Positions 5,923 to 50,048 of a DNA stretch of 64,000 nucleotides are shown here, piece after piece. Numbering within the stretch: position 1 is the stretch's first letter; the number at the start of each line of letters is the position of its first letter. The stretch covers positions 21,707 through 85,706 of the forward strand of contig CAKVHF010000005.1 in the NCBI GenBank assembly GCA_934748015.1. The letters run 5' to 3'. The DNA comes from an uncultured Clostridia bacterium. Its GTDB lineage: Bacteria; Bacillota; Clostridia; Christensenellales; UBA1242. Made by a program: the position numbers and the translations under genes. The notes under the pieces were generated by a model that saw only the letters and a list, made by a program, of their open reading frames with translations, had not been told where the DNA came from and made no database searches.

Positions 5923-8520
5923 TTATCCCCTCTTCCAGTGCTTATTAAGATATATAGATTTGAACAATGTAGAATTATAGAATGTATCTGTAGACGACAC
6001 TTCTGCATCTATACCATCAGTGTAATTAGTATTGCTATATACTTTCCAGCCAGTTGTATTACTAAATGTTACACTATTTAATAAACTACAACCCTGAAAC
6101 ACCTGATTACCAATTGTTGTCACACCACTACCAATAGTTACAGACTTTAATTGTCCAGCATAAGCAAAAGCAAAATTCCTTATAGTCGTAACCGAATTAT
6201 GAATTACAACACTTTCAAGTTTGCTAAAACCAAAACTTTCCGCACCAATGGTTTTTACAGAATTGGGTATAGTAATTGTTGTTATCGGTATAACATAGAA
6301 AGCACGATAACCTATCGCAGTTACTGTATTAGGTATTGTGGAATTTTTACAGCCAGCCACTAGTGTATTTGTTACAGTCTCGATAACTGCATTACAATTA
6401 TCTCTACTGTCATATACAGCATTGCCAGCATCAACTGTTATTGTTGCAAGATTATTGCAATAACCAAAGACATTCTCCTTGATTTTATTTACATTTTTAG
6501 GAATATTAATGGACTTCAATGGTGTTTGATAAAACGCTTGTACTCCTATTGTTTCTAAACTGTTTGGCAATGTTATACCACCTAATAAAACTCCTTGAAA
6601 TGCTTTATCACCAATTGCTTTTATTCCCTCAGGTATAGTAGAAGTTGCAATACCTTGAACAAGAGTATTGGTTGCAGTTTCTACAATAGCATTGCAGTTG
6701 TTTCTACTGTCATACTTTGGGTTGTTTTCATCCACCGTAAGAATGGCAAGATCTGTACAATTATCAAAAATTGCTTCATCAATCGTAACAACACCACTAG
6801 GAATATGTAGACTAGTCAACCCTTTGCAATATTGAAATGCGTAACTAGCAATAGACACCACTGTATTAGGGATAATTGATTTATTACAACCTATCACTAG
6901 TCTATTGACTGATGTTTCAATTACTGCATTGCAGTTGTTTCTGCTATCATACTTAGGATTTGCGGAACTTACTACAATACTATTAGTTCGACTTGTACAT
7001 AATGCAAGGCTTCCTATATAGTTGACAGAAGCTGGAATATAGAATGTTTCAATTGGAGTAAGGTAAAATGCATATCCATTAATAGTTGTTAAACCATTAG
7101 GCAATACAATATTTGTTAATCCTGTCTGTTGTAAACTGCTAGCACCTAATGTTTTTACTGTATAAGGTAAATTAATTTCTTGCAAACTGCTTATACCGTA
7201 GAAAGCACGATTCCCGATAGTTACTATACCTTCTGGCACAACAGTATTCTGACAACCATACATCAATGTATTGCTTGCAGTCTCAATAATTGCATTGCAA
7301 TTATTTCTACTATCATAATTAAGGTTTCCACTTTCTACTGTTATAGCCTCTAATTTAGCATCGTTTACCAACAAACCACCTCCAATCGATATAACACTCT
7401 TTGGAATGTACAGACTTCTTAAATTTGTGCAATCAGCAAATGTACTATCTCCTATAGATGTTACAGTATTTGGAATAACAACATCTACTATTGTTTTGTT
7501 ATACCTAAACGCAAAGCCCGCTATGGATGTAATTCTGGCATTGCCATGAGTGCCATCATTGTGGATATCTGGTACAAATATGTTGCTGGTTGAACCATTG
7601 TATCCACCTACTATTGCATAGCCGTCACCTGTGTAGGTGTAGGATAATCCCGGAGTTTCATCTTCGTACTTAGGATATATATTGGTGGAAGATGTTATAA
7701 GTGCTGGCCATTCAACCTCTATATCATTGCCACTCTCGTCCTTAGTGTACCAACCTGTAAAGCATTTGTTTGCTTTCTGAGGATATATATTTGGCTTTTC
7801 GTTCTCACAATCAAGAACAAGATTGACCTTATCCATTTCATCTTTGTTAACTACATCGGCATCGTCTGTGCCGGATATAATTGTTCCGCCAGATACATTC
7901 TCTGTTGTGTTATCTACTAAGCCTGCTTTGGTTAATGTCCAGCCAAATTCCCCTTCAAATAGTACGTCTTTCATAAGATCTTGGATAGATGCAATAACAT
8001 AGATATATTTAGTTGTTTTGGGTAATAATGATTGACTGTTAAGAGTAGTCTTATTGGATGTTATTGTATTGTACTTTTGGGCTGTGCTAGAAGAATATGT
8101 AAGTAATATATTGTTGTTGATTGTATCTACTGGCACTTTTACCCCACCATCCTCTATGGTCTGAGATATGCTTGCTGGAATAGTCTCGGATAGATTGGTG
8201 AATTTGTACTCATATATTATCTTGGAGTTATCTCTATCCATAACCAGTTCGTCTTCGGTCTGATTAAGTTCACCACTCATATTAACTGGTGACAAAGTTA
8301 ATATATCCGAGTTGCCATTCTTGAGAGTATATACATTGCTACCTATATATGCCTTAGCAGATATCTCTACATATACATCACTTACTTGATACTTTACCTT
8401 CAATTGCACTTTTGCATTTTGATTGCCTGCAACCATCACAACCATGATACCCACGATCATGGCTATTAGCATAATTGACATCAGTGCAATTGCGATTAAC
8501 AATTTTTTATTCTTACTCAT
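5923..8520 (-). CDS. membrane-anchored surface protein, paralogue 1 (shared N-domain, GWYT repeat, BspA-type LRR super-repeats, shared C-tail)
   Basis: Lys-rich N-terminus plus one TM. About 230 aa is shared with 12903-14417 and 28620-30098 (VKY..DV.V, IIYEYKFTN.S, Y.YV..SI, F.G.FGW.L.K). Then CFTGWYT...IYPKY (Listeria-Bacteroides-type repeat). Four super-repeats of about 95 aa follow, each with YDSR(N/D)NCNA(I/V)(I/V)ET plus ..IG..AF LRR units. Tail is GWKV...HWKR. Start set to ATG 8520 (AAGGAAG SD). Confidence 0.8.
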   Translation of the reverse strand: MSKNKKLLIAIALMSIMLIAMIVGIMVVMVAGNQNAKVQLKVKYQVSDVYVEISAKAYIGSNVYTLKNGNSDILTLSPVNMSGELNQTEDELVMDRDNSKIIYEYKFTNLSETIPASISQTIEDGGVKVPVDTINNNILLTYSSSTAQKYNTITSNKTTLNSQSLLPKTTKYIYVIASIQDLMKDVLFEGEFGWTLTKAGLVDNTTENVSGGTIISGTDDADVVNKDEMDKVNLVLDCENEKPNIYPQKANKCFTGWYTKDESGNDIEVEWPALITSSTNIYPKYEDETPGLSYTYTGDGYAIVGGYNGSTSNIFVPDIHNDGTHGNARITSIAGFAFRYNKTIVDVVIPNTVTSIGDSTFADCTNLRSLYIPKSVISIGGGLLVNDAKLEAITVESGNLNYDSRNNCNAIIETASNTLMYGCQNTVVPEGIVTIGNRAFYGISSLQEINLPYTVKTLGASSLQQTGLTNIVLPNGLTTINGYAFYLTPIETFYIPASVNYIGSLALCTSRTNSIVVSSANPKYDSRNNCNAVIETSVNRLVIGCNKSIIPNTVVSIASYAFQYCKGLTSLHIPSGVVTIDEAIFDNCTDLAILTVDENNPKYDSRNNCNAIVETATNTLVQGIATSTIPEGIKAIGDKAFQGVLLGGITLPNSLETIGVQAFYQTPLKSINIPKNVNKIKENVFGYCNNLATITVDAGNAVYDSRDNCNAVIETVTNTLVAGCKNSTIPNTVTAIGYRAFYVIPITTITIPNSVKTIGAESFGFSKLESVVIHNSVTTIRNFAFAYAGQLKSVTIGSGVTTIGNQVFQGCSLLNSVTFSNTTGWKVYSNTNYTDGIDAEVSSTDTFYNSTLFKSIYLNKHWKRG

Positions 8521-8682
8521 TGCTACTTCCTTTTCATTTAGTATTTGTATTTTTGGGAAAAAAACAAAAAAGGATATGGCAAACAATTTTACTTATTTAC
8601 CTAATATCCTTTAATTGATTAATTATTAAGTTGTGTTTGTTATGTACTGGGGATAAAATTATGCTATCCTTACCAAAGGATA

Positions 8683-12902: not shown

Positions 12903-14417
12903 TTATGATCTTGTCCAATTATAGGAAGAATATGTTGTAGTTAACAACTTTGCATTAGCTGCATAATCGGTATCAGATAATGCAATAGATTTTTTATTTC
13001 CAGATATATCAACTTTCCAACCACTAATATTTTCAAACTTAGCACTGGTTAATGTTGATCCAAAGGCAGATGCTGATATTTTGGTTACACTTCTTGGAAT
13101 TACAATGCTTGTTAGTAATGTACATCCATCAAACTCGTCCAATCCAATTTCTGTACTGTCATAAGATAGCGTCACAGCTGTCAACTTACTACACCCATTA
13201 AAATTAAGAGCATTTCCACTTACTATTTTTACTGCTAAAGATATAGTTGACAACTTACTACATCCCCAGAATGTACCGCCATTGATTTGCACTACATGGT
13301 TGCTTCCTCCACCAACTACTTGTGTTAGATTAGAACATCCCCAGAATGTGCCTGCACTAAAAGAAGTTATTGATCTTGGAATATATGCTGAAGTTATTGC
13401 CTTGTTAATTATACCGCTACCCATTGAACTACCTGATGTACCAGTAACTGGCTTTACACCATTAGTACCATTATACACATCTGGGATAATCATAATAGTA
13501 TCGGTGCCAGTGTAACCTGTCACTTTATAACTATCTGTAGCAGTGTCGTAGGAATACGCCAATCCACTTGTTGTAGAGCTCCTAAACAAAGGATACAACT
13601 TAGTGCTGGCAGTTGGAATAATTGGGAAAGTAGCTGGTTGTTGACAATTAAAGTCTAGATACCAACCCAAAAATACACTCTCCTCTATCATTGGATACTC
13701 TGGTTCTACATTCTCTACACCTATTACTAGTTGCAGACTTTCCATAGTGGACTTGTTGTATAATTTAGAATTAGTAGTATCAACAACTATTGCCTCTGTA
13801 GATCCATCACCCTTAGACAATGTCCAGCCAAAATCACCATTGAATTGCATATTATACAAAAGTTCCTTAATAGAAACAATTACATATACATATCTCTTAG
13901 TTCCAGCAGGAAGTGCAAGTGTACTATAAGTCTCGTTGTCAGAAGATGCGTTAGCACCCAACTGAGTAGAAGAGGACTTGTATGTTAGTTTTGCATTATC
14001 CTTGCCGGACTTGTCTGTAGGGACAACAACTGTGCCATCTACTACGGTCTGATCTATAGTTGCGGAAATCTCTGTGGACATGTTAGTAAAGATATACTCG
14101 TATATTATTCTATCATTCTCTGCCGAAAGATTAACAACGCTAACATTGCTAGGTTGGTTAAGCGATCCTGTTTCTTGCTTAGGTTTCAACTCGATAAATG
14201 TCTTATTGTCGCTAGTCACCATTGCTGTGGCTACACCACCTACATAGTAGTTAGCCTCTACCTTGACACTAACATCATTACTGACATATTTTACATTAAC
14301 GTTAGATGTTGCTCTCTGACTACCCACAACCAGTGCTACAACTAGTGATGCTGTAGAGATCACGAACATTGCAACCAATACAATAATTGCTATTGTCATT
14401 TTTTTGCGTTGTGTCAT
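12903..14417 (-). CDS. membrane-anchored surface protein, paralogue 2
   Basis: Same N-terminal architecture as paralogues 1 and 3 (TM, VKYVSNDVSVKVEANYYVGG, IIYEYIFTNMS, RYVYVIVSI, FNGDFGWTLSKG, FLGWY...LYPLF). The LRR region is short and degenerate. Tail is GWKV...YNWTRS. GGAGAG SD precedes ATG 14417. Confidence 0.8.
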   Translation of the reverse strand: MTQRKKMTIAIIVLVAMFVISTASLVVALVVGSQRATSNVNVKYVSNDVSVKVEANYYVGGVATAMVTSDNKTFIELKPKQETGSLNQPSNVSVVNLSAENDRIIYEYIFTNMSTEISATIDQTVVDGTVVVPTDKSGKDNAKLTYKSSSTQLGANASSDNETYSTLALPAGTKRYVYVIVSIKELLYNMQFNGDFGWTLSKGDGSTEAIVVDTTNSKLYNKSTMESLQLVIGVENVEPEYPMIEESVFLGWYLDFNCQQPATFPIIPTASTKLYPLFRSSTTSGLAYSYDTATDSYKVTGYTGTDTIMIIPDVYNGTNGVKPVTGTSGSSMGSGIINKAITSAYIPRSITSFSAGTFWGCSNLTQVVGGGSNHVVQINGGTFWGCSKLSTISLAVKIVSGNALNFNGCSKLTAVTLSYDSTEIGLDEFDGCTLLTSIVIPRSVTKISASAFGSTLTSAKFENISGWKVDISGNKKSIALSDTDYAANAKLLTTTYSSYNWTRS

Positions 14418-14660: not shown

Positions 14661-15464
14661 TTAGAAATACATTTTCCTTACAGCCCATTCTCGCATTTTG
14701 CGTGGCATAAGGCTAAGTAGGAATGAAAACAACTTGTACTTGCCACCTATTACATTTCGTACACGATAGTGTTTTTTTAGTGAAATTTTGTATATTTTGC
14801 CAGCAACATAGTCAGCTGTCATGCCACCTTGTTCGTCTCTTTCCATCTGTCCGACACACTTGGTGCACACCTTGCTATAGGGGTCATCTTCGTTCAGATT
14901 CTGCTTGTCTCTTGCTCCTGTAAAGCCAGTCTTGACATCACCCGGATGTACACTAAGTATCTGTACCCCAAAACTCTTAACCTCTGACCTAGTTGCATCC
15001 ACAAGGCTATCTAGTGCAGACTTGCTTGCCGAATAGAATGCTTGGAAAGGAAGGGGTACGAAACTAGCAACCGAACTGGTACAGATTATTCTGCCATAAC
15101 CCTGCTTACGCATAATTGCAATTGATGCCTTAATAACATTGAATGAACCTAAGAAGTTGATGTTCATTATCTTTCTTACGTCTTCGATGTCCGCAGTTTC
15201 TACCGGCCCACTTATTCCTATGCCAGCATTGGATACAACTATGTCGATTTTGCCTTCTTTCTCGGCTATTTCATCTATAATCTCGGTTATCCTTTCACTA
15301 CTTGTAACATCAGCACTATAGTATATCATTCCATCTAGTTGAAACGCTTTACGACCTATTCCATACACTATGTCATTGGAGGCAATATACTTCTTAGCCA
15401 GTGCTAGCCCTATACCGCTAGAAGCACCAGTAATAATAACGACTTTGTTATCCGCTTTTTTCAT
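14661..15464 (-). CDS. short-chain dehydrogenase/reductase (SDR)
   Basis: VVIITGASSGIGLALA cofactor motif, NAG, and YSASK catalytic motif. It abuts the upstream gene with no gap. Confidence 0.85.
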   Translation of the reverse strand: MKKADNKVVIITGASSGIGLALAKKYIASNDIVYGIGRKAFQLDGMIYYSADVTSSERITEIIDEIAEKEGKIDIVVSNAGIGISGPVETADIEDVRKIMNINFLGSFNVIKASIAIMRKQGYGRIICTSSVASFVPLPFQAFYSASKSALDSLVDATRSEVKSFGVQILSVHPGDVKTGFTGARDKQNLNEDDPYSKVCTKCVGQMERDEQGGMTADYVAGKIYKISLKKHYRVRNVIGGKYKLFSFLLSLMPRKMREWAVRKMYF

Positions 15465-16754
15465 TTATTCCTCTTTGTTTATTGAAATATTTCCTGTATT
15501 TACAACTTTGGAATTTTTGCCATTTCTAACAGAATTGCAAACAGTAAAAATCAGCCCTATGAATATAATTCCATAATAAGTAAACAATCTCCAGAAAAGC
15601 ATTGCCCAGAATTGCATGTCGCTCTTGAAAAATAGGCTAAACATACCCATGAAAGATAGTTCTGCAGCACCTGATCCACCAGGAAGTGGAACTAGGCTAA
15701 CCGCTGCATCACATAGGACTGACAACGCAACCATCTGCATCCATCCAGCAAGCTCCATTGTACCCTCTAGATAGTATGCATAGTTGAATGCAAGATAGAT
15801 AAAGTATGCAATTGTTGCATTAAGTATAATATTGAACATACCCAAGAATATCTGAATAATTGTGTTAAGAGGGTTTTTTAAGCTTTTCTTTATGCACAAC
15901 TGGTAGTTGTCAAAAGTCTTATGTGCTTTCTCATACGCTTTGTCATAATTCTTGATAATATGCATCTTGTGAAACAATTTCAAGAAGCCATTAAGTATTT
16001 TGCTACCTAGTTTGTTGTTAAATGACATCAACATTACAAACGAGAATAGCAAAATATTGCCTATTATTCCGAACCAAGCAAGATACCTAACAATGTTGGC
16101 TATATTGGTTATTTTAACTGGTGTCAAAACAACAATAATTGCAATAATACAGAAAGACATCTGCCAATATAGATATTTAGCAAGTGGAATACCTGTGGCG
16201 TTATCTCCGCTAAAACCATTTTTGCTTAAATGATAGATCTGGAATGGCTGACCACCCGAACCAAATGGAGTGATACAGTCCCAATATCTGCCAATTACGC
16301 CGTTTTCTAGCGCAATAATAGGTCTAAATTGACCAGTCGTTGTCTTGATGATCAATAATATCTTCAAGCCCTCAACCAGCAAGCATACTATCATTGCCCC
16401 AAGTGCTAGAAATAGAAATCTATAATATGGTGCTTCGGCAAATAGTTCGCCTAATGGTTTCAATCCGCCATCTACACTTTGCTTAACAAATATGGCTGAA
16501 ACTATCACAATGTTAAGTATGATAAATAGCCAACTAAGTAACTGCTTATTTATTTTCTTCTTTTTCTTAGGTTTAACTTCATTCGCAGTCTCTTCATTTA
16601 CAATCGTGTTCTCGGTTGTTGCATCCTCGTACACATCTTGTGGAAGTATCTTAATCCTAGAAAAAACAGTCGCATCTTCCGACTCAAAGTTCTTTTTTAA
16701 CTTAAGATTAACTATAACCTGCTTTAGACTTTTTTTCGTTTCTTTATTTTTCAT
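15465..16754 (-). CDS. flippase-like membrane protein (LPG-synthase TM / UPF0104-type domain)
   Basis: 429 aa. A Lys-rich cytoplasmic N-region is followed by about 8 TM segments with a PLPGGSGAAE motif typical of this family. Confidence 0.6.
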   Translation of the reverse strand: MKNKETKKSLKQVIVNLKLKKNFESEDATVFSRIKILPQDVYEDATTENTIVNEETANEVKPKKKKKINKQLLSWLFIILNIVIVSAIFVKQSVDGGLKPLGELFAEAPYYRFLFLALGAMIVCLLVEGLKILLIIKTTTGQFRPIIALENGVIGRYWDCITPFGSGGQPFQIYHLSKNGFSGDNATGIPLAKYLYWQMSFCIIAIIVVLTPVKITNIANIVRYLAWFGIIGNILLFSFVMLMSFNNKLGSKILNGFLKLFHKMHIIKNYDKAYEKAHKTFDNYQLCIKKSLKNPLNTIIQIFLGMFNIILNATIAYFIYLAFNYAYYLEGTMELAGWMQMVALSVLCDAAVSLVPLPGGSGAAELSFMGMFSLFFKSDMQFWAMLFWRLFTYYGIIFIGLIFTVCNSVRNGKNSKVVNTGNISINKEE

Positions 16755-16976
16755 ATTCTTATCTACTTTTTTATCTCAATGGTTGTATGACTTTGCTAGC
16801 ATATTGTATTGTAGCATAGTTTCTCTTTGCAACCTCAAACACTCCTACCCTGCACAAAATATCTCACAAATATTATTACAATCTCTTATATATCTCTTAT
16901 GCAAGTATAACACAAAATATTGTTAATGCAAAAAACATTTGGACATTATTTCAAGACATATCTGACAAAATATCTG

Positions 16977-18116
16977 TTATTTCTTGCCAATAAGTACAAG
17001 GGGGACTTCCACTTCCTCTCTCGTCAGTCCAGAATGATGTCCCTTGAACTTAATAAGATTCTCGTCACTGCCATGTGTTGTGTACTGTATTATGCTATTG
17101 CCGTAACCTATTGCGACAAAGTCACCAATGTATTTATCCACTAGGTCGCTCTTAGTCCCAAATAGTTTCTTCTTCTGGATAGTTTCCTTGGTGTATAGCA
17201 GAAATTCGTTGCCAAAATACTTCATAAATAGTTTGTAAAATTGCACCCTTTTGCCCGGCTTAACATTGAAGCCGATTGTTCTAGCATCCAGATATGGCGG
17301 ATTGACCAAAAGATCACACAGATCCTTATATTGATGTAGATATATCCTATTCTTGATCTCAATCTGTCCATGATCGGCACATATTATAACCAATGTATCA
17401 TCCACCTCGTCCATTAGTTTGGCAACAGATGTATTGATTGTCTTTACAAACTTGTTTGCTTCCGTGCTATATGGTCCAAACTCGTGCATAATTCCATCAG
17501 GATTAGGGTTGTAACAGAACACAAAATTACTTTTGTCATTATCGCATATCTTTTTGATATTTCTAAACATTCCATTAAGTGTCTTGTATGGTTTACTATT
17601 CCCAGGCACAGGCAGATTGTCTGGATACACTAGGGTTACTTCGCACTTGCCCTTCTTGGTGATCTTGTCAAAAATCCTCTTGGTTGGAATGGTTCTTGCA
17701 ATATAACCTGTGTCATCTAGTTTGACCTGGTCATAAGACTCCATTGCTGTAAATAGATCTACCACCTTGTCAATATCTGCAAAATACATATTCCAGCCTA
17801 ACCAGCCGTGTTCACTAGGATAACTGCATGTAGTATAAGTTGTAGTGGATGCAGTTGTAGTTGGTGGAAACACACTGTGCAAAATTTCTGCTGTGTGAGA
17901 ACGAATTATATCATCACTATTTAAGTGCTTATTCATTATATTTTTGCCAAAGCCGTCAAAAAGGATAAATACAACATTTTTGTATTTTTTCTTCAACTCT
18001 TTTTTTAGCACAGCACTCTTAGGATATTCATTTTTTACCCCATAATATTCCATGATAGTTGCAGGAATATTGATAACCGAATGCTTGTAATTTGGCTTAA
18101 ATATTTTGTTCATCAC
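16977..18116 (-). CDS. alkaline-phosphatase superfamily protein (type I phosphodiesterase / nucleotide pyrophosphatase-like)
   Basis: FILFDGFG metal-ligand motif, FPPTTTASTTTYTTCSYPSEHGW nucleophile region, CADHGQ. No signal peptide. Confidence 0.7.
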   Translation of the reverse strand: MMNKIFKPNYKHSVINIPATIMEYYGVKNEYPKSAVLKKELKKKYKNVVFILFDGFGKNIMNKHLNSDDIIRSHTAEILHSVFPPTTTASTTTYTTCSYPSEHGWLGWNMYFADIDKVVDLFTAMESYDQVKLDDTGYIARTIPTKRIFDKITKKGKCEVTLVYPDNLPVPGNSKPYKTLNGMFRNIKKICDNDKSNFVFCYNPNPDGIMHEFGPYSTEANKFVKTINTSVAKLMDEVDDTLVIICADHGQIEIKNRIYLHQYKDLCDLLVNPPYLDARTIGFNVKPGKRVQFYKLFMKYFGNEFLLYTKETIQKKKLFGTKSDLVDKYIGDFVAIGYGNSIIQYTTHGSDENLIKFKGHHSGLTREEVEVPLVLIGKK

Positions 18117-18435
18117 TTATCCTTTTTTTGTTATTTTATACACTATATGCTTTTGTATAATTTGGCTATATATAGGTGTTTTATCGTGTTATGCAAAAGT
18201 TGAGAAGATAATCTAATATACACATGAAATATGTAATAACAATTGTCATATTTTTGACATAATTTGTTTTAAATTATGACTTGCAAATTGTTATGACAAA
18301 AAAATTTCTTTTCAAGCAAAGTCTTGACTACTAGACAACAAAAAAAACACCACTTTGTCACCATATATATTAACAAAATAATACATTATAGGCAACCAAA
18401 AGCGGTGCTTATATTTATTTAGGGGAAAATTTGTC

Positions 18436-19176
18436 CTAGTCCCCATACACTCCGCCATCTATCTTGATGACCTGGTTATTAATGAAGTCGGCTCTACTAC
18501 TAGCTAAGTAAGAAACAAGACCAGCGACATCTTCCTCAGTCCCTGCACGCCTAACCATTATTTTACTCGTTTCATCTGCTATATACTCTTCATCCATGCC
18601 GTCTACTTCGCTCTCTGTCGCTATAAATCCCGGAGCGATCGCATTGCATGTAACATAAGGAGCAAATTGCATTGCAAGATTGTGTGTTAGGCTATTTAGT
18701 CCTGCCTTGGACGCATCATATTCGGCACACATAGGATAATATGTATTATCCCCATTGGTAGACGAAATGTTGATAATTTTGCCGTGCTTATTCTCATACA
18801 TTATCTGTCCAACTAGTTTGCTAAGATAGAATGATCCGACAAGGTTAACCCTAAGCACTCTAGCAAAACTATCCATGTCTTTGTCTGCAAATAGCGAATC
18901 GTGTGTTGTGGCAGAATTGTTGATAAGAACATCAATTTTGCCAAACTTCTTCATAACCTTATCTACTAGGTTATCTATTTCGCTCTGGTCGGCAATATCT
19001 GCTTTGACAAAGATATTATCTACACCCTTGCTAGACAATTCTGCTTGCAACGCTTTTGCTCTATCAACGCTTGTATTATAACACACAGCAACACTATATC
19101 CCTCGTCCGCCAGCGTCCTAACAATGCTAGCACCTATTCCTCTTGCACCACCTGTAACTAAAGCAACTCTGTTCAT
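18436..19176 (-). CDS. FabG-like SDR; candidate YmfI-type EF-P modification reductase
   Basis: MNRVALVTGGARGIGASI, NNSA, YDASKAG. It lies 59 nt downstream of efp with its own SD but no space for a promoter. Start set to ATG 19176. Confidence 0.8.
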   Translation of the reverse strand: MNRVALVTGGARGIGASIVRTLADEGYSVAVCYNTSVDRAKALQAELSSKGVDNIFVKADIADQSEIDNLVDKVMKKFGKIDVLINNSATTHDSLFADKDMDSFARVLRVNLVGSFYLSKLVGQIMYENKHGKIINISSTNGDNTYYPMCAEYDASKAGLNSLTHNLAMQFAPYVTCNAIAPGFIATESEVDGMDEEYIADETSKIMVRRAGTEEDVAGLVSYLASSRADFINNQVIKIDGGVYGD

Positions 19177-19215
19177 GTTTCCTTTTTCCCTTTTGTTTGA
19201 CCCATAATTTTTTAT

Positions 19216-19243
19216 CAAAAAAGGACTTAAAATAATTAAGCCC
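19216..19243 (-). terminator. short hairpin plus U-tract overlapping the efp stop codon (probable leaky terminator or attenuator)
   Basis: GGGCTTAA-ttatt-TTAAGTCC-TTTTTTG on the minus strand. The 5' arm contains the efp TAA. Confidence 0.5.
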
Positions 19244-19793
19244 TTGAATAGTATTTGCCATCGTTAGATGTAACAATGATCTTCTCGCCCTCTTCGATAA
19301 ATAGAGGAACTTTAACTAGCATGCCAGTCTCTGTGTAAGCATCCTTAGTCTGGTTAGTTGCAGTTGCTCCCTTAACACCTGGCTCAGTTCTTACGATTGT
19401 GAATTCGATCTTCTCTGGCAATGATAGTCCAAGCAACTCATTCTTATAACGAGTGATCTCAACTTCCATATTCTCAGTCAAGAAATTCTTCTTGTTGCCG
19501 ATCTGATCTTCTGTCAACTCAAATTGGTCATAAGTGTTAGTGTCCATAAAGTTGTATACACCATTGTCTTCGTACAAATATTGAACCTTAATACGATCAA
19601 TTCTTGCTTCTTCGAACTTAACGTTAGTATTGAAAGTACGCTCAATAGTTGCACCAGATCTCAAGTTCTGAAGTTTCGTCTTCATAAAAGCAGATCCCTT
19701 ACCTGGCTTAACATGTAGGAACTCAACTACTTGATAAATGTTACCTTCAATCAACAAAGTCATACCATTTCTAATATCATTTACTTCTATCAT
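19236..19793 (-). CDS. efp: translation elongation factor P
   Basis: 185 aa; MIEVNDIRNGMTLLIEGNIYQVVEFLHVKPGKGSAFMKTKLQNLRSG. The KPGKG loop has Lys at position 32 by direct count. C-terminus is ..TETGMLVKVPLFIEEGEKIIV. Confidence 0.95.
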   Translation of the reverse strand: MIEVNDIRNGMTLLIEGNIYQVVEFLHVKPGKGSAFMKTKLQNLRSGATIERTFNTNVKFEEARIDRIKVQYLYEDNGVYNFMDTNTYDQFELTEDQIGNKKNFLTENMEVEITRYKNELLGLSLPEKIEFTIVRTEPGVKGATATNQTKDAYTETGMLVKVPLFIEEGEKIIVTSNDGKYYSRA

Positions 19794-19829
19794 ACAATAA
19801 TCTCTCTTTTTTATAAGTTTTACTGACCT

Positions 19830-19859
19830 ATTTTACCTAAAAATAGCAACCCTTGTCAA
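19830..19859 (-). promoter_or_regulatory. putative efp promoter (TTGACA-N18-TAAAAT)
   Basis: Read on the minus strand about 35-65 nt upstream of the efp start. Confidence 0.45.
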
Positions 19860-19998
19860 TATCTTTTCACTACTTTTCCAGTTTGTATCATATTTTCTTT
19901 TTGTTTTTTTATTTACAAAATAGTCTACTTGTAGTAGAATAACGTAGATTACAACAAAATTGACTTGCAATAAACAATTGCATAACATAGGAGACAAA

Positions 19999-21249
19999 AT
20001 GTATTACGGATACGATATAGACGACAAAATAATAGAATTATCTAACAAGATTGAAAAACAAATAGCACCAATGCTAGAAGATATAGACAAAATTTGTATG
20101 CTTAATAGTGCCAAAGTATTGAAAGCATTCCAAGAAGAGCGAGTATCCACCTCAGACTTCAGTGAAGTAACAGGATATGGATTTACCGATGACGGAAGAG
20201 ATAAGCTAGAGAGAATATACTGTAGAATATTTAAGGCAGAAGACGCACTAGTAAGAAGCCAGATAATGTCAGGAACTCATGCACTTGCACTTACATTCTT
20301 TGGACTACTTAAGAGTGGTGACACTATGATATCTATCACTGGCGAGCCATACGACTCTCTACGCAGTATGATAGGAACTGAGGGCAATAGCCGTAACTCA
20401 CTAATTAAGCATGGCATCAAGTATGAGCAAATCGAGTTGATAGATAACGACTTCGATATCCCTACAATCCAAGAAAGACTAAGCAAGCACGATGTTAAAT
20501 TGGTAGAAATCCAAAGAAGTAGAGGATATAGCAATCGTCTAAGTCTAGAGATAGCAAAAATCGAGAAAGTCTGCAAAGCCATAAGAGAAGTAAATAGTGA
20601 AGTTATCATAATGGTAGACAACTGCTATGGTGACCTGGTCGAAGACAGAGAACCTATCGAGGTCGGTGCTGACATAATTGTAGGCTCATTGATGAAGAAC
20701 CTAGGTGGCGGAATTGCTAGGACTGGTGGATACATTGTGGGTAAGAAAGAATATATAGAAGATGTTGCCGAAAGATTTTCTGCACCATGTATTGGCAAAA
20801 ATCTAGGCGCTAACCTAAATAGCAATCTTGACTTCTACAAAGGGCTATATGTATCCCCTAGTGTAGTTGCTAGCAGTCTTAAGACTATGGTGTATGCTAG
20901 CGCAATGCTAGAAAGCCTTGGCTATGAAGTAAGTCCAAAATACAACGACAAGCGAACAGATATAATACAGACAATTACACTTAACACTGGCGACAACTTA
21001 GTTAACTTCTGCAAAGGCATACAAGCAGGCAGTCCAATAGATAGTTTCGTAACACCAATACCAGCACCTATGGATGGATATCCTCATGACGAAGTTATGG
21101 CAGGCGGAAGTTTCATATCCGGATCTACTATAGAGTTAAGTTGCGATGGCCCAATGACACCACCATATTTTGCATTTATGCAAGGTGGACTTACATACGA
21201 GTATGGCAAATTAGGCATAATGATCGCACTAAGCAAAATCGACAAATAA
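19999..21249 (+). CDS. ynbB: YnbB / aluminium-resistance-type PLP-dependent enzyme (Cys/Met-metabolism fold)
   Basis: MYYGYDIDDKIIELSNKIEKQI...FQEERVSTSDF..TGYGFTDDGRDKLERIY matches the YnbB-type N-terminus; ..GSLMKNLGG.. supplies the lysine region. Start set to ATG 19999 (AGGAGA SD). Confidence 0.75.
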   Translation: MYYGYDIDDKIIELSNKIEKQIAPMLEDIDKICMLNSAKVLKAFQEERVSTSDFSEVTGYGFTDDGRDKLERIYCRIFKAEDALVRSQIMSGTHALALTFFGLLKSGDTMISITGEPYDSLRSMIGTEGNSRNSLIKHGIKYEQIELIDNDFDIPTIQERLSKHDVKLVEIQRSRGYSNRLSLEIAKIEKVCKAIREVNSEVIIMVDNCYGDLVEDREPIEVGADIIVGSLMKNLGGGIARTGGYIVGKKEYIEDVAERFSAPCIGKNLGANLNSNLDFYKGLYVSPSVVASSLKTMVYASAMLESLGYEVSPKYNDKRTDIIQTITLNTGDNLVNFCKGIQAGSPIDSFVTPIPAPMDGYPHDEVMAGGSFISGSTIELSCDGPMTPPYFAFMQGGLTYEYGKLGIMIALSKIDK

Positions 21250-21305
21250 CTCAAACAAAATATGTGCAAGAAATTAATTAGAAAAATTGCAAATAGTTAA
21301 AAAAC

Positions 21306-21342
21306 AAAAAATACACTAGCAAATCAAATCTAGTGTATTTTT
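21306..21342. terminator. bidirectional terminator hairpin, copy 2 of the repeated element
   Basis: AAAAAATACACTAG-caaatcaaat-CTAGTGTATTTTT between convergent ynbB and the EF-P paralogue. Confidence 0.75.
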
Positions 21343-21349
21343 CTTAGTC

Positions 21350-21883
21350 CTATTCAATAATCTCGCCAGTCTCGGTGTCTACCTCAACCTTCTGTCCCAC
21401 AACCATGTCACTATCTACCTTAACATTTAGTCCAGTCTCTAGCACTGCGTTGCGATAACCATTGACTGTTGTGTCGTCAATCTCAACAATGGTTAGATCC
21501 ACTGTCTGAGGCAAAGTAATCTTAAGTAACTTGTCCTTAGCAAAAGTCATTGTTACAACTGCGTCTTCCGAAATATATTGCATATAGTCTTTAACAAGTT
21601 TGCTGGTAAGTGGCAATTGGTCATACTCATTAACATCAATGAAGTAGTATAGATCACCATCTTGGTACGAGAATTGCATCTTCTTATCTACAATCTCAAA
21701 CTCTTCCACTTCTTCATTCATTGCAAATTTCTTGTCAATAATATCGCCTGTCTCTAGATCTTCTAGACTAGTAACATACTCACTATTCAACATTGAGTCG
21801 CCAACCATTTCACAATTCTGCACACGATATAGATGTCCATCGTACTCAAACGTGTCACCCACCTTAACATTAGTAATTGTCAT
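21350..21883 (-). CDS. divergent EF-P paralogue lacking the modified-lysine loop
   Basis: 177 aa. The N-terminal region aligns to the window's efp without gaps (GHLYRVQNCEMVGDSMLNSEYVTSLEDLETGD against GNIYQVVEFLHVKPGKGSAFMKTKLQNLRSGA). Middle (YQDGDLYYFIDVNEYDQ) and C-terminal (AVLETGLNVKV...VEVDTETGE) EF-P signatures are retained. Confidence 0.75.
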   Translation of the reverse strand: MTITNVKVGDTFEYDGHLYRVQNCEMVGDSMLNSEYVTSLEDLETGDIIDKKFAMNEEVEEFEIVDKKMQFSYQDGDLYYFIDVNEYDQLPLTSKLVKDYMQYISEDAVVTMTFAKDKLLKITLPQTVDLTIVEIDDTTVNGYRNAVLETGLNVKVDSDMVVGQKVEVDTETGEIIE

Positions 21884-22080
21884 AATAGTTTCAATCGTCT
21901 CCTAATATTCTCTTACAAAAATCGAACGCCGTTATTGTAACACAAACCATATCCTATATGCAACTGTTTTGCACAAAAATAGTTTTGTCGTCTATGCTTG
22001 TCCAAAAACAGCACTTTACTAAAAAATTTTATTCTTGTAACTTGATTTATGATTATATTATCACTACATCGCTGTCTTAT

Positions 22081-22116
22081 GCACATTGATCAAAATAAGC
22101 ACATTGATCAAAATAT
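22081..22116. repeat. tandem 18-nt direct repeat containing the palindrome TTGATCAA
   Basis: gcacattgatcaaaataa / gcacattgatcaaaatat, 17 of 18 identical. Confidence 0.85.
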
Positions 22117-22141
22117 AACACTTCAAAAAAATTATGTAATA

Positions 22142-23272
22142 TTATTTCCTAACAAGCAAAGCAATGCTCTCTATATGATTGGTATGAGGGAACATATCAA
22201 AACATTCCACCGATTTCAAAATAAAATCTTTTTGTAACAATTTGATATCCCTAGCAAGCGTAGTTGGATCACATGACATATACACCATGCGATCTATATT
22301 GGAGTTAAGTATTGCATTGATTGTCTCTGGCTCTGCACCGTTTCGTGCTGGATCTAGAAAGCATTTAGAATAACCACCTATATCAATATTATTTATCACA
22401 TCACCACATGCACCAGTGTATATATCCAAGTTGGCTATATTATTCAGCTTTTTGTTGATTTCTGCATTTTTAGTTGCTTCTTTGTTATATTCAATACTTA
22501 TAACTTTATTACACTTTTTGGCAAAAAGTATAGATGTTATGCCAATACCACTATACATATCGACAATATTATCACATGTATTGATGTCCAATAGTTTCAT
22601 TGCCCTATTATACATTGCTTTGCATATCTCTAGATTGACTTGCAAGAAACTATTGGGTGATATCTGATATTTTACACCCAAGATATTAGATTGTATATAC
22701 TTCTCACCCTTAACAAAACTAAAGCCTTTGTCATCAAAAACCAACTTGTCTGATCTAGAATTAACATTGACATATAGAGATACTTTCTTGAACGCCTCAC
22801 TAAGCTTAGCATACAGATATTCTCTGCCGGCAAAGTTCTTAGTCGTTGTTACAATTGTACACATAATATTGCCATCTATCACCCTTGCAACAACATATCT
22901 GATAACGCCAGTTCTGGTGTCATTGTCATAAGGTTCGATCCTATATTTCGTTACAAATCCTCTAACAATTTCTATCAATTTGCCTAGCCATGTATCATGC
23001 AAAAGGCACGACTTAATATCTACAACTCTTCTACTTCCTTCCTCGTAAAACCCAATTATAATTTTGCCCTTGAATTTCTTAATTGCAAGGTGAACTTTGT
23101 TACGATACTTGTAAGGAAAAAACATTCCTATCGGTGTAGGAATATTTATATCTATATTGTTGTTATTAAATATATCTTGTACATAATTTTTCTTAAGCTG
23201 CAATTGCTCGGAATAGTCTATATCCATAAGCGAACAATTGCCACAATATTTAGCATATTCACATTTTTTCAT
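22142..23272 (-). CDS. 23S rRNA (uracil-5)-methyltransferase, RlmCD/RumA family
   Basis: N-terminal Cys cluster CEYAKYCGNCSLM, SAM motif DMYSGIGITS, and FLDPARNG...YMSCDP catalytic region. No TRAM domain. Confidence 0.8.
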   Translation of the reverse strand: MKKCEYAKYCGNCSLMDIDYSEQLQLKKNYVQDIFNNNNIDINIPTPIGMFFPYKYRNKVHLAIKKFKGKIIIGFYEEGSRRVVDIKSCLLHDTWLGKLIEIVRGFVTKYRIEPYDNDTRTGVIRYVVARVIDGNIMCTIVTTTKNFAGREYLYAKLSEAFKKVSLYVNVNSRSDKLVFDDKGFSFVKGEKYIQSNILGVKYQISPNSFLQVNLEICKAMYNRAMKLLDINTCDNIVDMYSGIGITSILFAKKCNKVISIEYNKEATKNAEINKKLNNIANLDIYTGACGDVINNIDIGGYSKCFLDPARNGAEPETINAILNSNIDRMVYMSCDPTTLARDIKLLQKDFILKSVECFDMFPHTNHIESIALLVRK

Positions 23273-28619: not shown

Positions 28620-30098
28620 TTATGCACGGTTCCATAGACATCCAGAATATGTGCTTGTTAGATATGTTGCATTAGCACTTGGATCGTTTAAATCAAGTTT
28701 AATTGTAGATCCAGATGAAAGATCTTGCACTGTCCAGCCCTTAGGATTGCTAAAAGTAACGCTTGTAAGAGAACTATCTACAAATGTACTAGGTGCCAAT
28801 TGTTTAACACCTGCTGGGATTGTAAATGTTTTCAAATTGGTTGTATCATTAAATGCAGCAACTCCAATAGAAGTTATACTATCTGGCATATTGATGCTAC
28901 TTAGTTTTGAGCAACCCCTGAATGCGGCATCACCAATTTGTGTTATTCCGTCACCAAGTGTTACACTAGTAAGATTGGTACAACCCTCAAATTCGGAAGA
29001 ATTTAGACTGACAAAAGTCTTTGGAAGCACAATAGTTTGGATTGTTGTGTTGCCTTTGAAATAAATAGTAGAAGAATCATATTGAAATATTCCAACAACT
29101 TCTCCAGTAGTACTGCCTATTTTTACAACATCAGGAACAATGATATTTGTGGCAGTTCCACTATACATAGGATCTGAAACGCTTCCTACATAAAAATTGC
29201 TTCCATCGCTAAAGTAACTTAATCCACTAGTCGCAGTTTCAAACTTAGGATACAACTTAGTTGTTTCAGTTATAACCATTGGAAAGTTTGCCTTAGAAGT
29301 TAGCCCAGAATTAGTATACCAACCTGTGAAGCATTTGCTCTCAACCATTGGATATACTGCAGGCTCAACATTCTCGACACCTACCATAAGATCAATCTTG
29401 TTTACTGCATCTGCGTTATAAAATCCTGTCTGAGAAGTATTGACATTGACAATGCTATTTCCGCTACCTGTAGAATCGACAGTGGCAGATGTACCCTTAG
29501 CTAGATCCCAGCCAAAGTCACCCTGGAAATCCACATCGGCTAGCAAATCATGTATAGCAACCATAACATATACATATCTAGTTGAACTAACTGGCAATGC
29601 TTGCTTGTTGAAGGTAGTTGATGTACTAGAGGCATTGCTACCCAGTTGTGTTGTAGATGTCATGTATGTAATATCTACATTGTTATTAACATCGCTTGGG
29701 ATCATAATTGTATTATCTGCATTAAGCAACTGATCTATTGTTGCAGGAATGCTAGAGGACAAGTTGGTGAATTTGTATTCATACACAATTCTGCTATTTG
29801 TCTTATCTAGAGTAACCTCTGTTGCGTTTTGGTCAAGTGAGCCAGAAGTCTTATTGGCATCCAGTTCGATAGATGTTGCATTGCCATTACTCTTATCTAC
29901 CATGTCTGTTCCAGTTGAGCCTATATAGTATTTTGCTTCAACCCTAACATTAACATCACTACTAGTGTACTTAACATGTACCTTAGATTCTGCACTTTGG
30001 TTGCCAGCAACTAGCACCACAATAAGTGTACCTGTGACAGCCACTATAGCCACTGCAATGACAATAACCAAAGCCAACATTTTTTTACTACTTGTCAT
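28620..30098 (-). CDS. membrane-anchored surface protein, paralogue 3
   Basis: TM anchor, VKYTSSDVNVRVEAKYYIGS, IVYEYKFTNLS, RYVYVMVAI, FQGDFGWDLAKG, CFTGWYT...LYPKF, short LRR region. Tail is GWTV...LWNRA. Start set to ATG 30098 (AGGAGAA SD). Confidence 0.8.
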   Translation of the reverse strand: MTSSKKMLALVIVIAVAIVAVTGTLIVVLVAGNQSAESKVHVKYTSSDVNVRVEAKYYIGSTGTDMVDKSNGNATSIELDANKTSGSLDQNATEVTLDKTNSRIVYEYKFTNLSSSIPATIDQLLNADNTIMIPSDVNNNVDITYMTSTTQLGSNASSTSTTFNKQALPVSSTRYVYVMVAIHDLLADVDFQGDFGWDLAKGTSATVDSTGSGNSIVNVNTSQTGFYNADAVNKIDLMVGVENVEPAVYPMVESKCFTGWYTNSGLTSKANFPMVITETTKLYPKFETATSGLSYFSDGSNFYVGSVSDPMYSGTATNIIVPDVVKIGSTTGEVVGIFQYDSSTIYFKGNTTIQTIVLPKTFVSLNSSEFEGCTNLTSVTLGDGITQIGDAAFRGCSKLSSINMPDSITSIGVAAFNDTTNLKTFTIPAGVKQLAPSTFVDSSLTSVTFSNPKGWTVQDLSSGSTIKLDLNDPSANATYLTSTYSGCLWNRA

Positions 30099-30342
30099 TT
30101 TTTCATTTCTCCTGCATTGATTATATTTACTTTTATCCTTAACTATATTATTAGTATTCTCTCTAAACAATATAATTGTATAACAATTTGATAAATTTAC
30201 AAAACAAATTATTATATTAATACCAAAAAAATAGCAACCTATGACCTTTAATAAAAATTATTTTTAAAAATCAAAATCAGTTGCTATTTTTTTATTGTGT
30301 TTTAGTTATCTTGTTATAGTATTTCTACAATAAGACACTTAT

Positions 30343-42639: not shown

Positions 42640-44460
42640 TTATGCTCTGTTCCAGTACTTTGTTTTGTGTGTGGTTTTTAACAATGTCGCATTAGCAACA
42701 AAATCAGAATCAGATATTGTTACCGCTGTGCCTGTAGTTGCTGTACTAGAAGTGGTAACAGTCCAACCAGTTAAAACTCCAAATTTGGCACTAACCAATT
42801 TAGAACAATTATAAAAAGCATACGCTCCTATTTTTTTAACTCCGCTACCAATTGTAACACTGGTCATCTTGGTACAATTTCTAAAAGCTGAACCATTTAT
42901 ATTAATTACATTATTGGGAATTACTATACTAGTTAATCCAGAACAATTGCTAAAGGCAGAACTACCTATATCAGTAACACCATTTCCTATTGAAACACTA
43001 TTCAAATTGCTACAATCATTGAAAGCTGTATCACCAATACTTACTACACCATCACCTATTATTACACTCTTAGAGACACTAGAACTATAATAAAAGGCAC
43101 TTTCAAACGCACTTTTACCTATAATTGTTGCACCACCACCTATTATTGTTGCACTATCCAATCTATAACAATTTGCAAAAGCCGATTTTCCTATACTGAC
43201 TACATTAGCTGGAATAATTACATTTTTTAGCATTTCGCAATTCGAAAAAGCTTGATCACCTATGTTAGTTACTCCATTGCCTATTGTTATAGTTTCAACT
43301 TTAGTACAACTATTAAAAGCTTCACTACCTATAGTAATAACACTATCTGGGATTGTTATGTCTACCAAATTAGTACACGACGAGAAAGCTAAATTATCTA
43401 TAGTTTTTACTCCATTGCCTATTGTTAAACTAGTTAAGCCATCGCACTGATTAAATGCATAAGAACCTATAGTGATCACACTATCCGGAATTGTTACACT
43501 AGTCAAACCATAACACTTAAAGAATGCATGTGAACCTATACTAGTTACTTTATTACCAATTCTCCATGTCTGCAATTTTTCACATTCTCTAAACGCCTCG
43601 TCTCCAATATTTGTTACATTATCACCAATTGTTAAATATGTTAATTTTTTACAATACATAAAGGCACTATTGCCTATACTGGTTACCCCATTGCCAATGT
43701 ATACATAAGACAAATTACTGCAATTCATAAAAGCATCATCACCTATAGTAGTTACACTGTCCGGTATTTTTATACTACTGAAATAACCGCTACTGCAACC
43801 ATAAAAGGCATTTACACCTATACTAGTTACACTATCTGGGATTGTTACATTACTTAAACTAGAACAATTAAAAAAAGCACGTTCTTCTATATCGGTTACA
43901 CAATTTGAAATTGTTACATTTGTCAAATCACTACAATTATTAAAACCCTGTATTGCTATGCTTGTTACTTTATGAGCACCATTTATTCCATCATCGTATA
44001 TATCAGCAATAATAGCACTAGTGATAGTCTTTCTTGCACATTTAACTGTATAACTACTCGTACTTTCTTGAAAGGTATATGTTAAATTACTTGTAGTTGC
44101 ATCTAAATATACAGGGTAAAATGCAACGTCTTCAGTTACAGTAAATGGGAAAACCGCCTCATTGGTTGCATTTGCGTCTGTATACCAACCCGTAAAACAC
44201 TTATTTAGTATTGTTGGAACTGGCAGTTTTTCTATAGCTTCACCATTTTTTATTTTCTTATAATCATTGAAATCACTAGCATTTGTACAATCTTCACTTA
44301 ATGAAAAAGTAACTATACTACTGCCACCATAATGAATATCTAGATCGGTCAGAACATACTGAGTGCCAGACACCATCACTATACCCAAAGTGGTTAATAC
44401 TAGCATCAATGTTACAATCAATATACACAATGTCAAAGATAATTTTCTTGTGTCATTCAT
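42640..44460 (-). CDS. membrane-anchored BspA-type LRR surface protein, paralogue 4 (lacks the long N-domain)
   Basis: TM anchor, CFTGWYTDANATNEAVFPFTVTEDVAFYPVY repeat, then about 18 units of ..V(T/I)..IG..AF..C..L..(V/I). Shared tail is GWTV...ANATLLKTTHKTKYWNRA. Confidence 0.8.
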   Translation of the reverse strand: MNDTRKLSLTLCILIVTLMLVLTTLGIVMVSGTQYVLTDLDIHYGGSSIVTFSLSEDCTNASDFNDYKKIKNGEAIEKLPVPTILNKCFTGWYTDANATNEAVFPFTVTEDVAFYPVYLDATTSNLTYTFQESTSSYTVKCARKTITSAIIADIYDDGINGAHKVTSIAIQGFNNCSDLTNVTISNCVTDIEERAFFNCSSLSNVTIPDSVTSIGVNAFYGCSSGYFSSIKIPDSVTTIGDDAFMNCSNLSYVYIGNGVTSIGNSAFMYCKKLTYLTIGDNVTNIGDEAFRECEKLQTWRIGNKVTSIGSHAFFKCYGLTSVTIPDSVITIGSYAFNQCDGLTSLTIGNGVKTIDNLAFSSCTNLVDITIPDSVITIGSEAFNSCTKVETITIGNGVTNIGDQAFSNCEMLKNVIIPANVVSIGKSAFANCYRLDSATIIGGGATIIGKSAFESAFYYSSSVSKSVIIGDGVVSIGDTAFNDCSNLNSVSIGNGVTDIGSSAFSNCSGLTSIVIPNNVININGSAFRNCTKMTSVTIGSGVKKIGAYAFYNCSKLVSAKFGVLTGWTVTTSSTATTGTAVTISDSDFVANATLLKTTHKTKYWNRA

Positions 44461-49677: not shown

Positions 49678-49745
49678 AAAATTGCTAATATATATGCAAA
49701 ATATTGACAAATATAGATAAAATTGCTAATATATATGCAAAATAT
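49678..49745 (+). promoter_or_regulatory. hipBA promoter bracketed by two identical 27-nt operator-like repeats
   Basis: aaaattgctaatatatatgcaaaatat occurs at 49678-49704 and again at 49719-49745, each containing TTGC-N10-GCAA. TTGACA (49704-49709)-N17-TAATAT (49727-49732). Confidence 0.6.
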
Positions 49746-49757
49746 AAGGGGTGTAAA

Positions 49758-50048
49758 ATGGAAAACAGATTTGACATAAGCAAATTTGTAGATACAACTA
49801 CAGAAGCCAGTATAGTTCAAGGATTAATCGCAAGGGTGAAAAAAAGACGAAAAGAATTGAAGTGGTCACAATCAACTCTTGCAACAAAATCAGGCGTGAG
49901 TTATGGATCTATAAGAAGATTTGAAGCAACTGGAGAGATTTCTCTTTCGTCATTGATCAAGATTGCTCATGCCATGGACTGCATGCTAGATTTCAACCAC
50001 TTATTTCAACGCCAGATAATAACTAACCTAAAGGATTATAACGGATAA
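49758..50048 (+). CDS. hipB: XRE-family HTH antitoxin (HipB-like)
   Basis: ..RRKELKWSQSTLATKSGVSYGSIRRFE.. HTH. AAGGGG SD. Its stop overlaps the hipA start (TAATG). Confidence 0.8.
   Translation: MENRFDISKFVDTTTEASIVQGLIARVKKRRKELKWSQSTLATKSGVSYGSIRRFEATGEISLSSLIKIAHAMDCMLDFNHLFQRQIITNLKDYNG

Follow-up and report, generated by a model that had tools for sequence, protein, structure and literature searches.

In Gammaproteobacteria the genes epmA and epmB lie near efp, the gene for elongation factor P (EF-P), and in Betaproteobacteria earP adjoins it. Lassak is said to have described in 2015 how linkage to efp led to the recognition of EarP and, in part, of EpmAB. For the Firmicutes the chemistry of EF-P modification has been open since 2016-2018, with three Bacillus subtilis genes required and none reconstituted. 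The genetics of this B. subtilis pathway, which places 5-aminopentanol on Lys32 of EF-P, were reportedly worked out by Hummels in 2017. The three proteins concerned, YnbB, GsaB and YmfI, were also the subject of genetic work by Witzky (2018). The gene ynbB is genetically required for the modification, and modification intermediates have been found on EF-P Lys32; the order of the steps and their on-protein assembly were inferred solely from these intermediates, as seen by mass spectrometry (PMC5885033). YmfI converts 5-aminopentanone, inhibitory if left unreduced, to the alcohol. That YnbB begins the assembly, drawing on a fatty-acid-like substrate, is only a proposal. The same outline of the genetics still appears in reviews as recent as 2026. 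Homologues of these proteins are hard to tell from housekeeping paralogues, and surveys therefore rely on ad hoc BLAST cut-offs. Here we describe a 64-kb stretch of DNA (hereafter the window; G+C about 36%) on contig CAKVHF010000005.1 of a gut Clostridia genome, contained in a scaffold of 1,084,506 bp in the ENA metagenome assembly ERZ28615298, in which efp, a gene for a short-chain dehydrogenase/reductase (SDR) and a ynbB homologue share one locus, an arrangement that recurs in relatives and beyond the close ones.

The protein-coding genes of the locus are the following.

19236-19793, minus strand: efp, elongation factor P, 185 aa, with Lys32 in an HVKPGKGSA loop
18436-19176, minus strand: SDR reductase of an efp-linked clade, 246 aa from its ATG, with the N-S-Y-K tetrad and the clade signature
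19999-21249, plus strand: YnbB-family enzyme dependent on pyridoxal 5'-phosphate (PLP; PF06838, 'aluminium resistance protein' or C-S-lyase-like), 416 aa
21350-21883, minus strand: EFP2, a divergent, acidic EF-P paralogue, 177 aa, convergent with ynbB

The SDR gene lies 3' of efp on the same strand, 59 nt beyond the efp stop, and ynbB is divergent from efp across an intergenic distance of 205 bp. For the first three genes these coordinates and distances had been given in a first-pass annotation made from the DNA letters, and on re-reading they proved exact to the base. That annotation took the locus to unite EF-P with homologues of YmfI and YnbB, and offered it as independent genomic-context support for the EF-P pathway, subject to its recurrence in related genomes.

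Recurrence was assessed from the side of each enzyme. A scan anchored on ynbB covered 80 species-representative genome loci (YnbB identity 57-77%), and a scan anchored on the SDR clade covered 80 metagenome loci (SDR identity 49-58%). In the former, an efp>SDR pair lay within 6 kb of ynbB at 20 of the 80 loci, 13 of them among the 49 loci with at least 3.5 kb on both sides. In the latter, efp stood directly 5' of the SDR gene and on the same strand at every evaluable locus (71/71; median gap 20 nt), and ynbB was nearby at 59 of the 62 loci where this could be evaluated. Throughout the loci examined, the SDR-clade gene was always directly 3' of efp and never in a fab operon; the clade is essentially defined by this position and occurs essentially only there. 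Further homologues showed the same trio within outer flanking genes that were entirely different.

The order and orientation of the three genes vary. The divergent arrangement of the window (A) was found in the ynbB-anchored scan in metagenome-assembled genomes (MAGs) labelled Clostridia, Christensenella or Eubacteriales, and a convergent arrangement (B; ynbB> <SDR <efp) in MAGs labelled Erysipelotrichaceae, Bacilli or Bacillales, with unrelated or mobile genes between the parts at some loci. A co-directional arrangement (C; efp>SDR>ynbB), in which SDR and ynbB overlap by 4 nt, came from the SDR-anchored scan. When the scans were pooled, 101 loci collapsed into 62 SDR clusters at 90% identity, comprising 13 divergent, 31 convergent and 6 co-directional clusters and 12, mostly on short contigs, where ynbB was not seen. 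The linkage of efp, SDR and ynbB is far beyond chance, and the three genes have stayed together as a unit despite at least two rearrangements. Because the neighbourhood recurs strongly in relatives and also beyond the close ones, the context support anticipated by the first-pass annotation holds, and more strongly than it had foreseen. The conserved three-gene module of this gut Clostridia genome provides strong gene-neighbourhood evidence that both enzymes act on EF-P. Searching the available literature, including reviews of 2024-2026 and a STRING study of the efp neighbourhood in Staphylococcus aureus, we came upon no description of a ynbB or SDR gene linked to efp, which is not proof that there is none.

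The reductase itself is not the protein that was expected. It had been called YmfI-like, and this label does not survive comparison. On the NCBIfam YmfI equivalog model NF047420 the window SDR scored 160.4 bits, below the cut-off of 238. Among four other efp-linked SDRs from distant loci, three scored 158-167 bits, and for the fourth the model was missing from the list of its 25 best families; the control, a sequence of the YmfI family, reached 344.6 bits. By BLASTP the window protein matched B. subtilis YmfI (P0339) at 112 bits and 31% identity, short of the minimum of 145 bits applied in a published survey (Brewer and Wagner 2024). A neighbour-joining tree (244 columns, 200 bootstraps) of 19 efp-adjacent SDRs, six YmfI proteins, four FabGs, CylG and two outgroup SDRs recovered an efp-linked clade with 98.5% bootstrap support, a YmfI clade with 100% and a FabG clade with 80.5%, and joined the efp-adjacent SDRs with YmfI in just 5.5% of bootstraps. 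Orthology with YmfI is rejected by the equivalog model, by BLASTP and by the tree. Since the tree does not settle the deep branching of these SDRs, a remote common origin of the efp-linked clade and YmfI may nevertheless lie behind them.

A canonical FabG is likewise rejected, on model cut-offs and on the docking residues. The fold, length and N-S-Y-K tetrad of the window SDR are those of FabG (TIGR01830; 3OSU, 2UVD, 1I01), with 33-40% identity, and its nearest solved structures are FabGs, from S. aureus (3OSU; 159 bits, 39% identity) and Bacillus anthracis (2UVD), closer than YmfI at 112 bits and 31%. Its best NCBIfam match is also a FabG model, TIGR01830, yet its score of 205.5 bits falls below the cut-off of 297.75, and it lies under the cut-offs of all other FabG models. 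Zhang et al. are said to have reported in 2003 that Arg129 and Arg172 of Escherichia coli FabG dock acyl carrier protein (ACP). In that numbering both positions are Arg in the four FabGs aligned (4/4), whereas the efp-linked clade has K, D or E at 129 and Y, F, H or N at 172; YmfI likewise lacks Arg172. The window SDR differs from FabG further in a substrate loop with a one-residue insertion (STNGxNTYYPMCxEY) and in the placement of its gene behind efp.

Members of the efp-linked clade share an invariant catalytic tetrad, intact in the window SDR, as well as a distinctive substrate loop with 14 clade-specific invariant residues. The signature STNG(D/I)NTY(Y/F)PMCxEYDASKA is present in the window protein. 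At the position where FabG contacts the 2'-phosphate of NADPH, a basic residue is retained, Arg in the window SDR and in 10 of the 19 clade members, and Lys in eight. By the tree, the SDR belongs to its own, previously unnamed, efp-linked clade, and it is predicted to be a non-orthologous or very diverged replacement of YmfI.

The assignment of the PLP enzyme as YnbB-type, by contrast with that of the SDR, was borne out. The window protein scored 538 bits on PF06838 (gathering score 24), over profile positions 2-404 of 405. It matched PDB 3HVY, deposited as 'YNBB B. subtilis ortholog', at 427 bits, the Listeria structure 3JZL at 389 bits and the Bacillus cereus structure 3HT4 at 381 bits. All three are above the 200 bits that Brewer and Wagner (2024) set as their BLASTP cut-off, on a different score scale. 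In a survey of B. subtilis PLP enzymes, 3JZL was 67% identical to B. subtilis YnbB (PMC6522883). Residue K233 in the motif GSLMKNLGGG, together with N234-L235-G236-G237-G238, is invariant among 19 YnbB homologues (alignment A1), and K233 is the putative Schiff-base lysine for PLP, as the fold type suggests. By these scores the enzyme can be taken as a genuine member of the YnbB family.

The substrate is equally clear. The window EF-P scored 237 bits on the equivalog model TIGR00038 (cut-off 186) and contains all three EF-P Pfam domains (PF08207, PF01132, PF09285). Its loop reads H27-V-K-P-G-K32-G-S-A, so that the KPGKG motif and the Lys at position 32 are as first annotated, and position 34 is Ser and not the Pro of the unmodified-type PGKGP loop. 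An HVKPGKG(A/S)A loop was found in all 93 SDR-linked efp genes (93/93). HVKPGKG is the loop that bears 5-aminopentanol in B. subtilis and S. aureus (PMC7327921).

The locus thus resembles the YnbB/GsaB/YmfI pathway of B. subtilis in its HVKPGKG loop with Lys32, in a clear YnbB-family enzyme and in an NAD(P)H-type SDR of the classical kind, whose tetrad is intact and which, like YmfI, is without the Arg172 of FabG. It differs in that its genes are clustered or operonic with efp, whereas those of Bacillus are dispersed (ynbB with ynbA), in that its reductase comes from another SDR clade, and in that no GsaB homologue is linked. The lack of linkage to efp in B. subtilis, which the first-pass annotation had stated, was confirmed for ymfI, which lies between ftsK/ymfFGH and pgsA-cinA-recA, far from efp. 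The epmAB and earP systems are alike in principle, with enzymes that modify the EF-P loop tip encoded beside efp; they differ in belonging to unrelated families (a lysyl-tRNA-synthetase paralogue and an aminomutase; a glycosyltransferase) and in their chemistry.

We consider it reasonably probable that both the SDR and YnbB act on EF-P and that the locus is a compact Lys32 modification module. The YnbB-family enzyme would carry out an early, obligatory PLP-dependent step on EF-P Lys32, as B. subtilis genetics suggest, by which a C5-type chain bearing a carbonyl is built on the epsilon-amine. Reduction of the ketone to the alcohol, the role of YmfI in Bacillus, would then fall to the NAD(P)H-dependent SDR. 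If the SDR gene is co-transcribed with efp, the supply of reductase would for that reason track that of its substrate, EF-P, and such coupling would be sensible, given the inhibitory effect of the unreduced 5-aminopentanone form in B. subtilis. The amine step might be encoded elsewhere, performed by YnbB itself or absent; if absent, the final group would differ from 5-aminopentanol. Because no GsaB-type aminotransferase is linked, the product is uncertain and may not be that of Bacillus, and our confidence that it is exactly 5-aminopentanol is much lower than our confidence that both enzymes act on EF-P.

Several observations weigh against the proposed module. The Bacillus pathway that serves as its model has itself never been reconstituted biochemically, and the SDR, as set out above, is not a YmfI orthologue and has FabGs as its nearest solved structures. 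About three quarters of the ynbB loci from related species are not beside efp, from which it follows that YnbB function does not require linkage. Whereas B. subtilis requires gsaB, no gene of the gsaB/hemL type turned up in the module or in a check of some 40 window gene products, of which 28 were scanned and the others came with precomputed Pfam hits; yaaO-like genes were likewise absent from the 28 scanned window open reading frames (ORFs) and 19 listed genes. In the window, efp and the SDR gene are separated by a terminator-like hairpin. Finally, genes of nicotinamide adenine dinucleotide (NAD) salvage, encoding PnuC or NudC, are often directly 5' of efp, which could point to a small-molecule pathway.

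This last observation underlies one competing account, in which the SDR and YnbB act together on a free metabolite, for instance one linked to NAD salvage, or one that is polyamine-like or an amino-alcohol. This metabolite would affect translation only indirectly, or would simply be the unattached precursor of what EF-P carries. At many loci, in both major lineages, the gene directly 5' of efp encodes a PnuC-family transporter or a NudC-like NADH pyrophosphatase; arrangement C couples SDR and ynbB in translation; and the step order and on-protein assembly in B. subtilis were read from mass-spectrometry intermediates alone. The invariant partner of the SDR is nevertheless efp (71/71), as against about one quarter to one third for each NAD gene; the window locus has neither pnuC nor nudC; and the B. 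subtilis intermediates were found attached to Lys32. We regard action on a free metabolite as improbable.

A second account would make the SDR a divergent 3-oxoacyl reductase of lipid or envelope metabolism that shares the strong promoter of efp, and ynbB an unrelated C-S lyase or sulfur gene, with the linkage reflecting co-expression with growth-rate-regulated genes. The FabG structures (3OSU, 159 bits; 2UVD) and the FabG model that best match the SDR favour this view, as do the envelope-type genes 3' of it in the clade of the window (a phosphodiesterase, an LPG-synthase-TM flippase-like protein and a second SDR), and in some bacteria efp lies near the fatty-acid genes accB and accC. The SDR nonetheless falls under every FabG equivalog cut-off (205 versus 298 bits), lacks the ACP-docking Arg129 and Arg172 and forms a separate clade. 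The envelope genes are kept only in close relatives of the window while efp-SDR-ynbB is kept beyond them, SDR and ynbB overlap by 4 nt in arrangement C, and YnbB is tied to EF-P by B. subtilis genetics. Mere co-expression with housekeeping genes strikes us as quite improbable. A variant that retains action on EF-P would treat efp-SDR-ynbB as a self-sufficient, GsaB-free system that installs a group other than 5-aminopentanol on Lys32 (for example a hydroxy-alkyl group without a terminal amine, or one with an amine from YnbB), while EFP2, itself unmodified, would bind the ribosomal E site or the modifying enzymes and act as a regulator or decoy; we hold this to be speculative and somewhat unlikely.

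Clustering of all neighbours in the 160 loci yielded only two recurrent extra partners directly 5' of efp, the PnuC-type transporter and the NudC-like Nudix protein. The transporter gene (PF04973) was counted at 19 of the 80 genome loci and 22 of the 80 metagenome loci (e.g. L013, L019, L021, L022, L029, L035, L062, L069, L072, L080, L095, L096, L107, L111), counts that include loci without efp where pnuC is divergent from ynbB. The NudC-like NADH pyrophosphatase, with a zinc ribbon and a Nudix domain, occupied the position at 26 loci, mostly human-gut metagenome assemblies (the L129-L167 group). It is puzzling that two different NAD-salvage genes should occur at one spot. A class I/II aminotransferase gene (PF00155) follows ynbB> <SDR <efp <pnuC in only two loci, L072 and L080, from closely related Erysipelotrichaceae, and its product could serve there as a stand-in for GsaB.

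Other Clostridia carry ynbB apart from efp in recurrent settings. In one group (18 loci, the L026-L053 group) it follows genes for a lipoprotein-type cyclophilin peptidyl-prolyl isomerase and a SpoU-type methyltransferase, and in another (the L049-L078 group) it precedes genes for a flavoprotein, YigZ/UPF0029 and Spo0A. A proline isomerase beside a gene of the EF-P pathway is curious. In the window, the block 3' of the SDR gene (14661-18116, minus strand) encodes an alkaline-phosphatase-type phosphodiesterase, the LPG-synthase-TM flippase-like protein and the second SDR, similar to 3-ketodihydrosphingosine reductase (214 bits, against a cut-off of 400). L002 and L087 share this block and other lineages do not; it is probably an envelope-lipid unit outside the EF-P module. 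No fab genes were found among the window proteins scanned (28 ORFs and the listed genes).

Candidate signals for the expression of the locus are as follows.

19830-19859, minus strand: efp promoter-like site, TTGACA-18-TAAAAT, 11/12 consensus positions
19912-19940, plus strand: ynbB promoter-like site, TTTACA-17-TAGAAT, 10/12 consensus positions
19221-19245, minus strand: terminator-like hairpin, 10-bp stem with 3 G-C pairs, then U6, overlapping the efp stop codon
21311-21343, no strand assigned: inverted repeat ATACACTAG-N10-CTAGTGTAT, with an A-run and a T-run at its flanks, read from the sequence

A single conserved sigma-70-type promoter-like site thus lies 5' of efp and the SDR gene, and a second conserved one, divergent from it, 5' of ynbB. 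Conservation was judged on nine related loci, where the hexamers align: wherever a related arrangement-A locus aligns at the efp site, both hexamers of that site are kept, and the ynbB consensus TATTTACA...TAGTAAAAT is kept in most of the aligned loci. The 59-nt gap between efp and the SDR gene contains no promoter-like site by our scan, in agreement with the earlier statement that it has no room for one. The Shine-Dalgarno (SD) sequence ascribed to the SDR gene was also found, as a purine-rich SD-like stretch GGGAAAAAGGAAAC 5' of the ATG; the ORF can be extended to a TTG at 19218, and homologues begin at the ATG. The ATG of ynbB has GGAG 5 nt upstream, and the gene caller of the source assembly starts the gene at a TTG 21 nt upstream of that ATG.

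The short hairpin at the efp stop, likewise reported at first pass, is the sole terminator-like site in a scan of 18100-22200 whose settings leave out the 21311-21343 repeat (loop longer than 8 nt, few G-C pairs in the stem). Its folding energy, -14 kcal/mol, is not exceptional against shuffled sequence (z = -0.9). The hairpin probably acts as a weak or attenuating terminator, or else marks an mRNA end; because its energy is no better than that of shuffled sequence, we do not claim a regulated attenuator. The repeat at 21311-21343, from its position and make-up, resembles a bidirectional terminator serving ynbB and EFP2, which converge there.

EFP2, which adjoins ynbB, had been passed over in the first-pass annotation. 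The protein is 30% identical to the EF-P of the window and lacks the KPGKG loop, reading CEMVGDSMLNSEY with no Arg or Lys at the tip. It is strongly acidic, with 38 D/E against 14 K/R. Its AlphaFold2 model (mean predicted local distance difference test score, pLDDT, 90.6) has a TM-score of 0.81 to S. aureus EF-P (6RJI), from which a three-domain EF-P fold is predicted with confidence. A search of 1.84 billion cluster representatives returned only three at E <= 1e-30, including that of the query itself (99% identical), and a handful of relatives at 33-40% identity, some of them with a loop 5 residues shorter. One relative, P0363, occupies the same position beside ynbB on three metagenome contigs (L087:6001-6519, L088:6001-6519 and L089:2522-3040). 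Between the window and these contigs EFP2 is 38% identical, as against 84% for EF-P, 78% for YnbB and 68% for the SDR, which puts its rate of evolution at about four times that of the neighbouring genes. Neither the closest genome locus (L002) nor any other locus examined carries EFP2, and by this distribution it is confined to a narrow Clostridia subclade.

Decay of a duplicate is an unlikely origin for EFP2, because the reading frame is intact in both species. EfpL/YeiP is rejected as its identity, at 69.8 bits on TIGR02178 (cut-off 264) and with no extended Arg-tipped loop. The gammaproteobacterial EfpL/YeiP (TIGR02178, PDB 8S8U) and EFP2 are alike as a second three-domain EF-P-fold protein in the genome that is not expected to be modified; EFP2 differs in being acidic and fast-evolving, with a loop that is degenerate, or 5 residues shorter in relatives. 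A loop-degenerate EF-P paralogue beside ynbB is a separate lead on the evolution of the EF-P family. Three further observations concern these loci and the relatives of EFP2. A full-length EF-P-like protein, P0362 (L090:6001-6558; NCBI GCA_054296685.1), is 40% identical to EFP2 and has HVSRPRLAAL in place of HVKPGKG, with its gene between pheST and an M14 peptidase gene; it may represent an unusual EF-P loop type. Six tandem DUF3419 (PF11899) paralogues lie directly 5' of EFP2 in L087 (L087:1-5805). In the same locus ynbB is split into pieces of 282 and 112 aa, whereas it is intact in the near-identical L088.

For the EF-P pathway, the module offers independent comparative support for the involvement of YnbB. 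The new reductase clade is invisible both to the YmfI model and to the published BLAST cut-off, and EF-P 'type' calls in Clostridia and Erysipelotrichia may be under-called because criteria built on YmfI would not flag the efp-linked SDR. As a three-gene cassette, the locus is a compact system for heterologous reconstitution and mass spectrometry of a Gram-positive EF-P modification, and with it comes the question whether an amine step is necessary in the first place.

Elsewhere in the window, several genes encode large surface proteins with BspA-type leucine-rich repeats (LRR_5; 5923-8586, 12903-14417, 28620-30170 and 42640-44460, all on the minus strand), in a genome that appears small. A HipA-like kinase gene (50048-51145, plus strand) is preceded by a small ORF (49704-50048), and by their arrangement the two may form a toxin-antitoxin pair. 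A search for regulatory RNA with Rfam gave no match in the efp/SDR/ynbB locus; its matches in the window, both elsewhere, were one tRNA and one S-adenosylmethionine (SAM) riboswitch, the latter at 60033-60121 on the minus strand (62.9 bits), upstream of metK (58829-59920).

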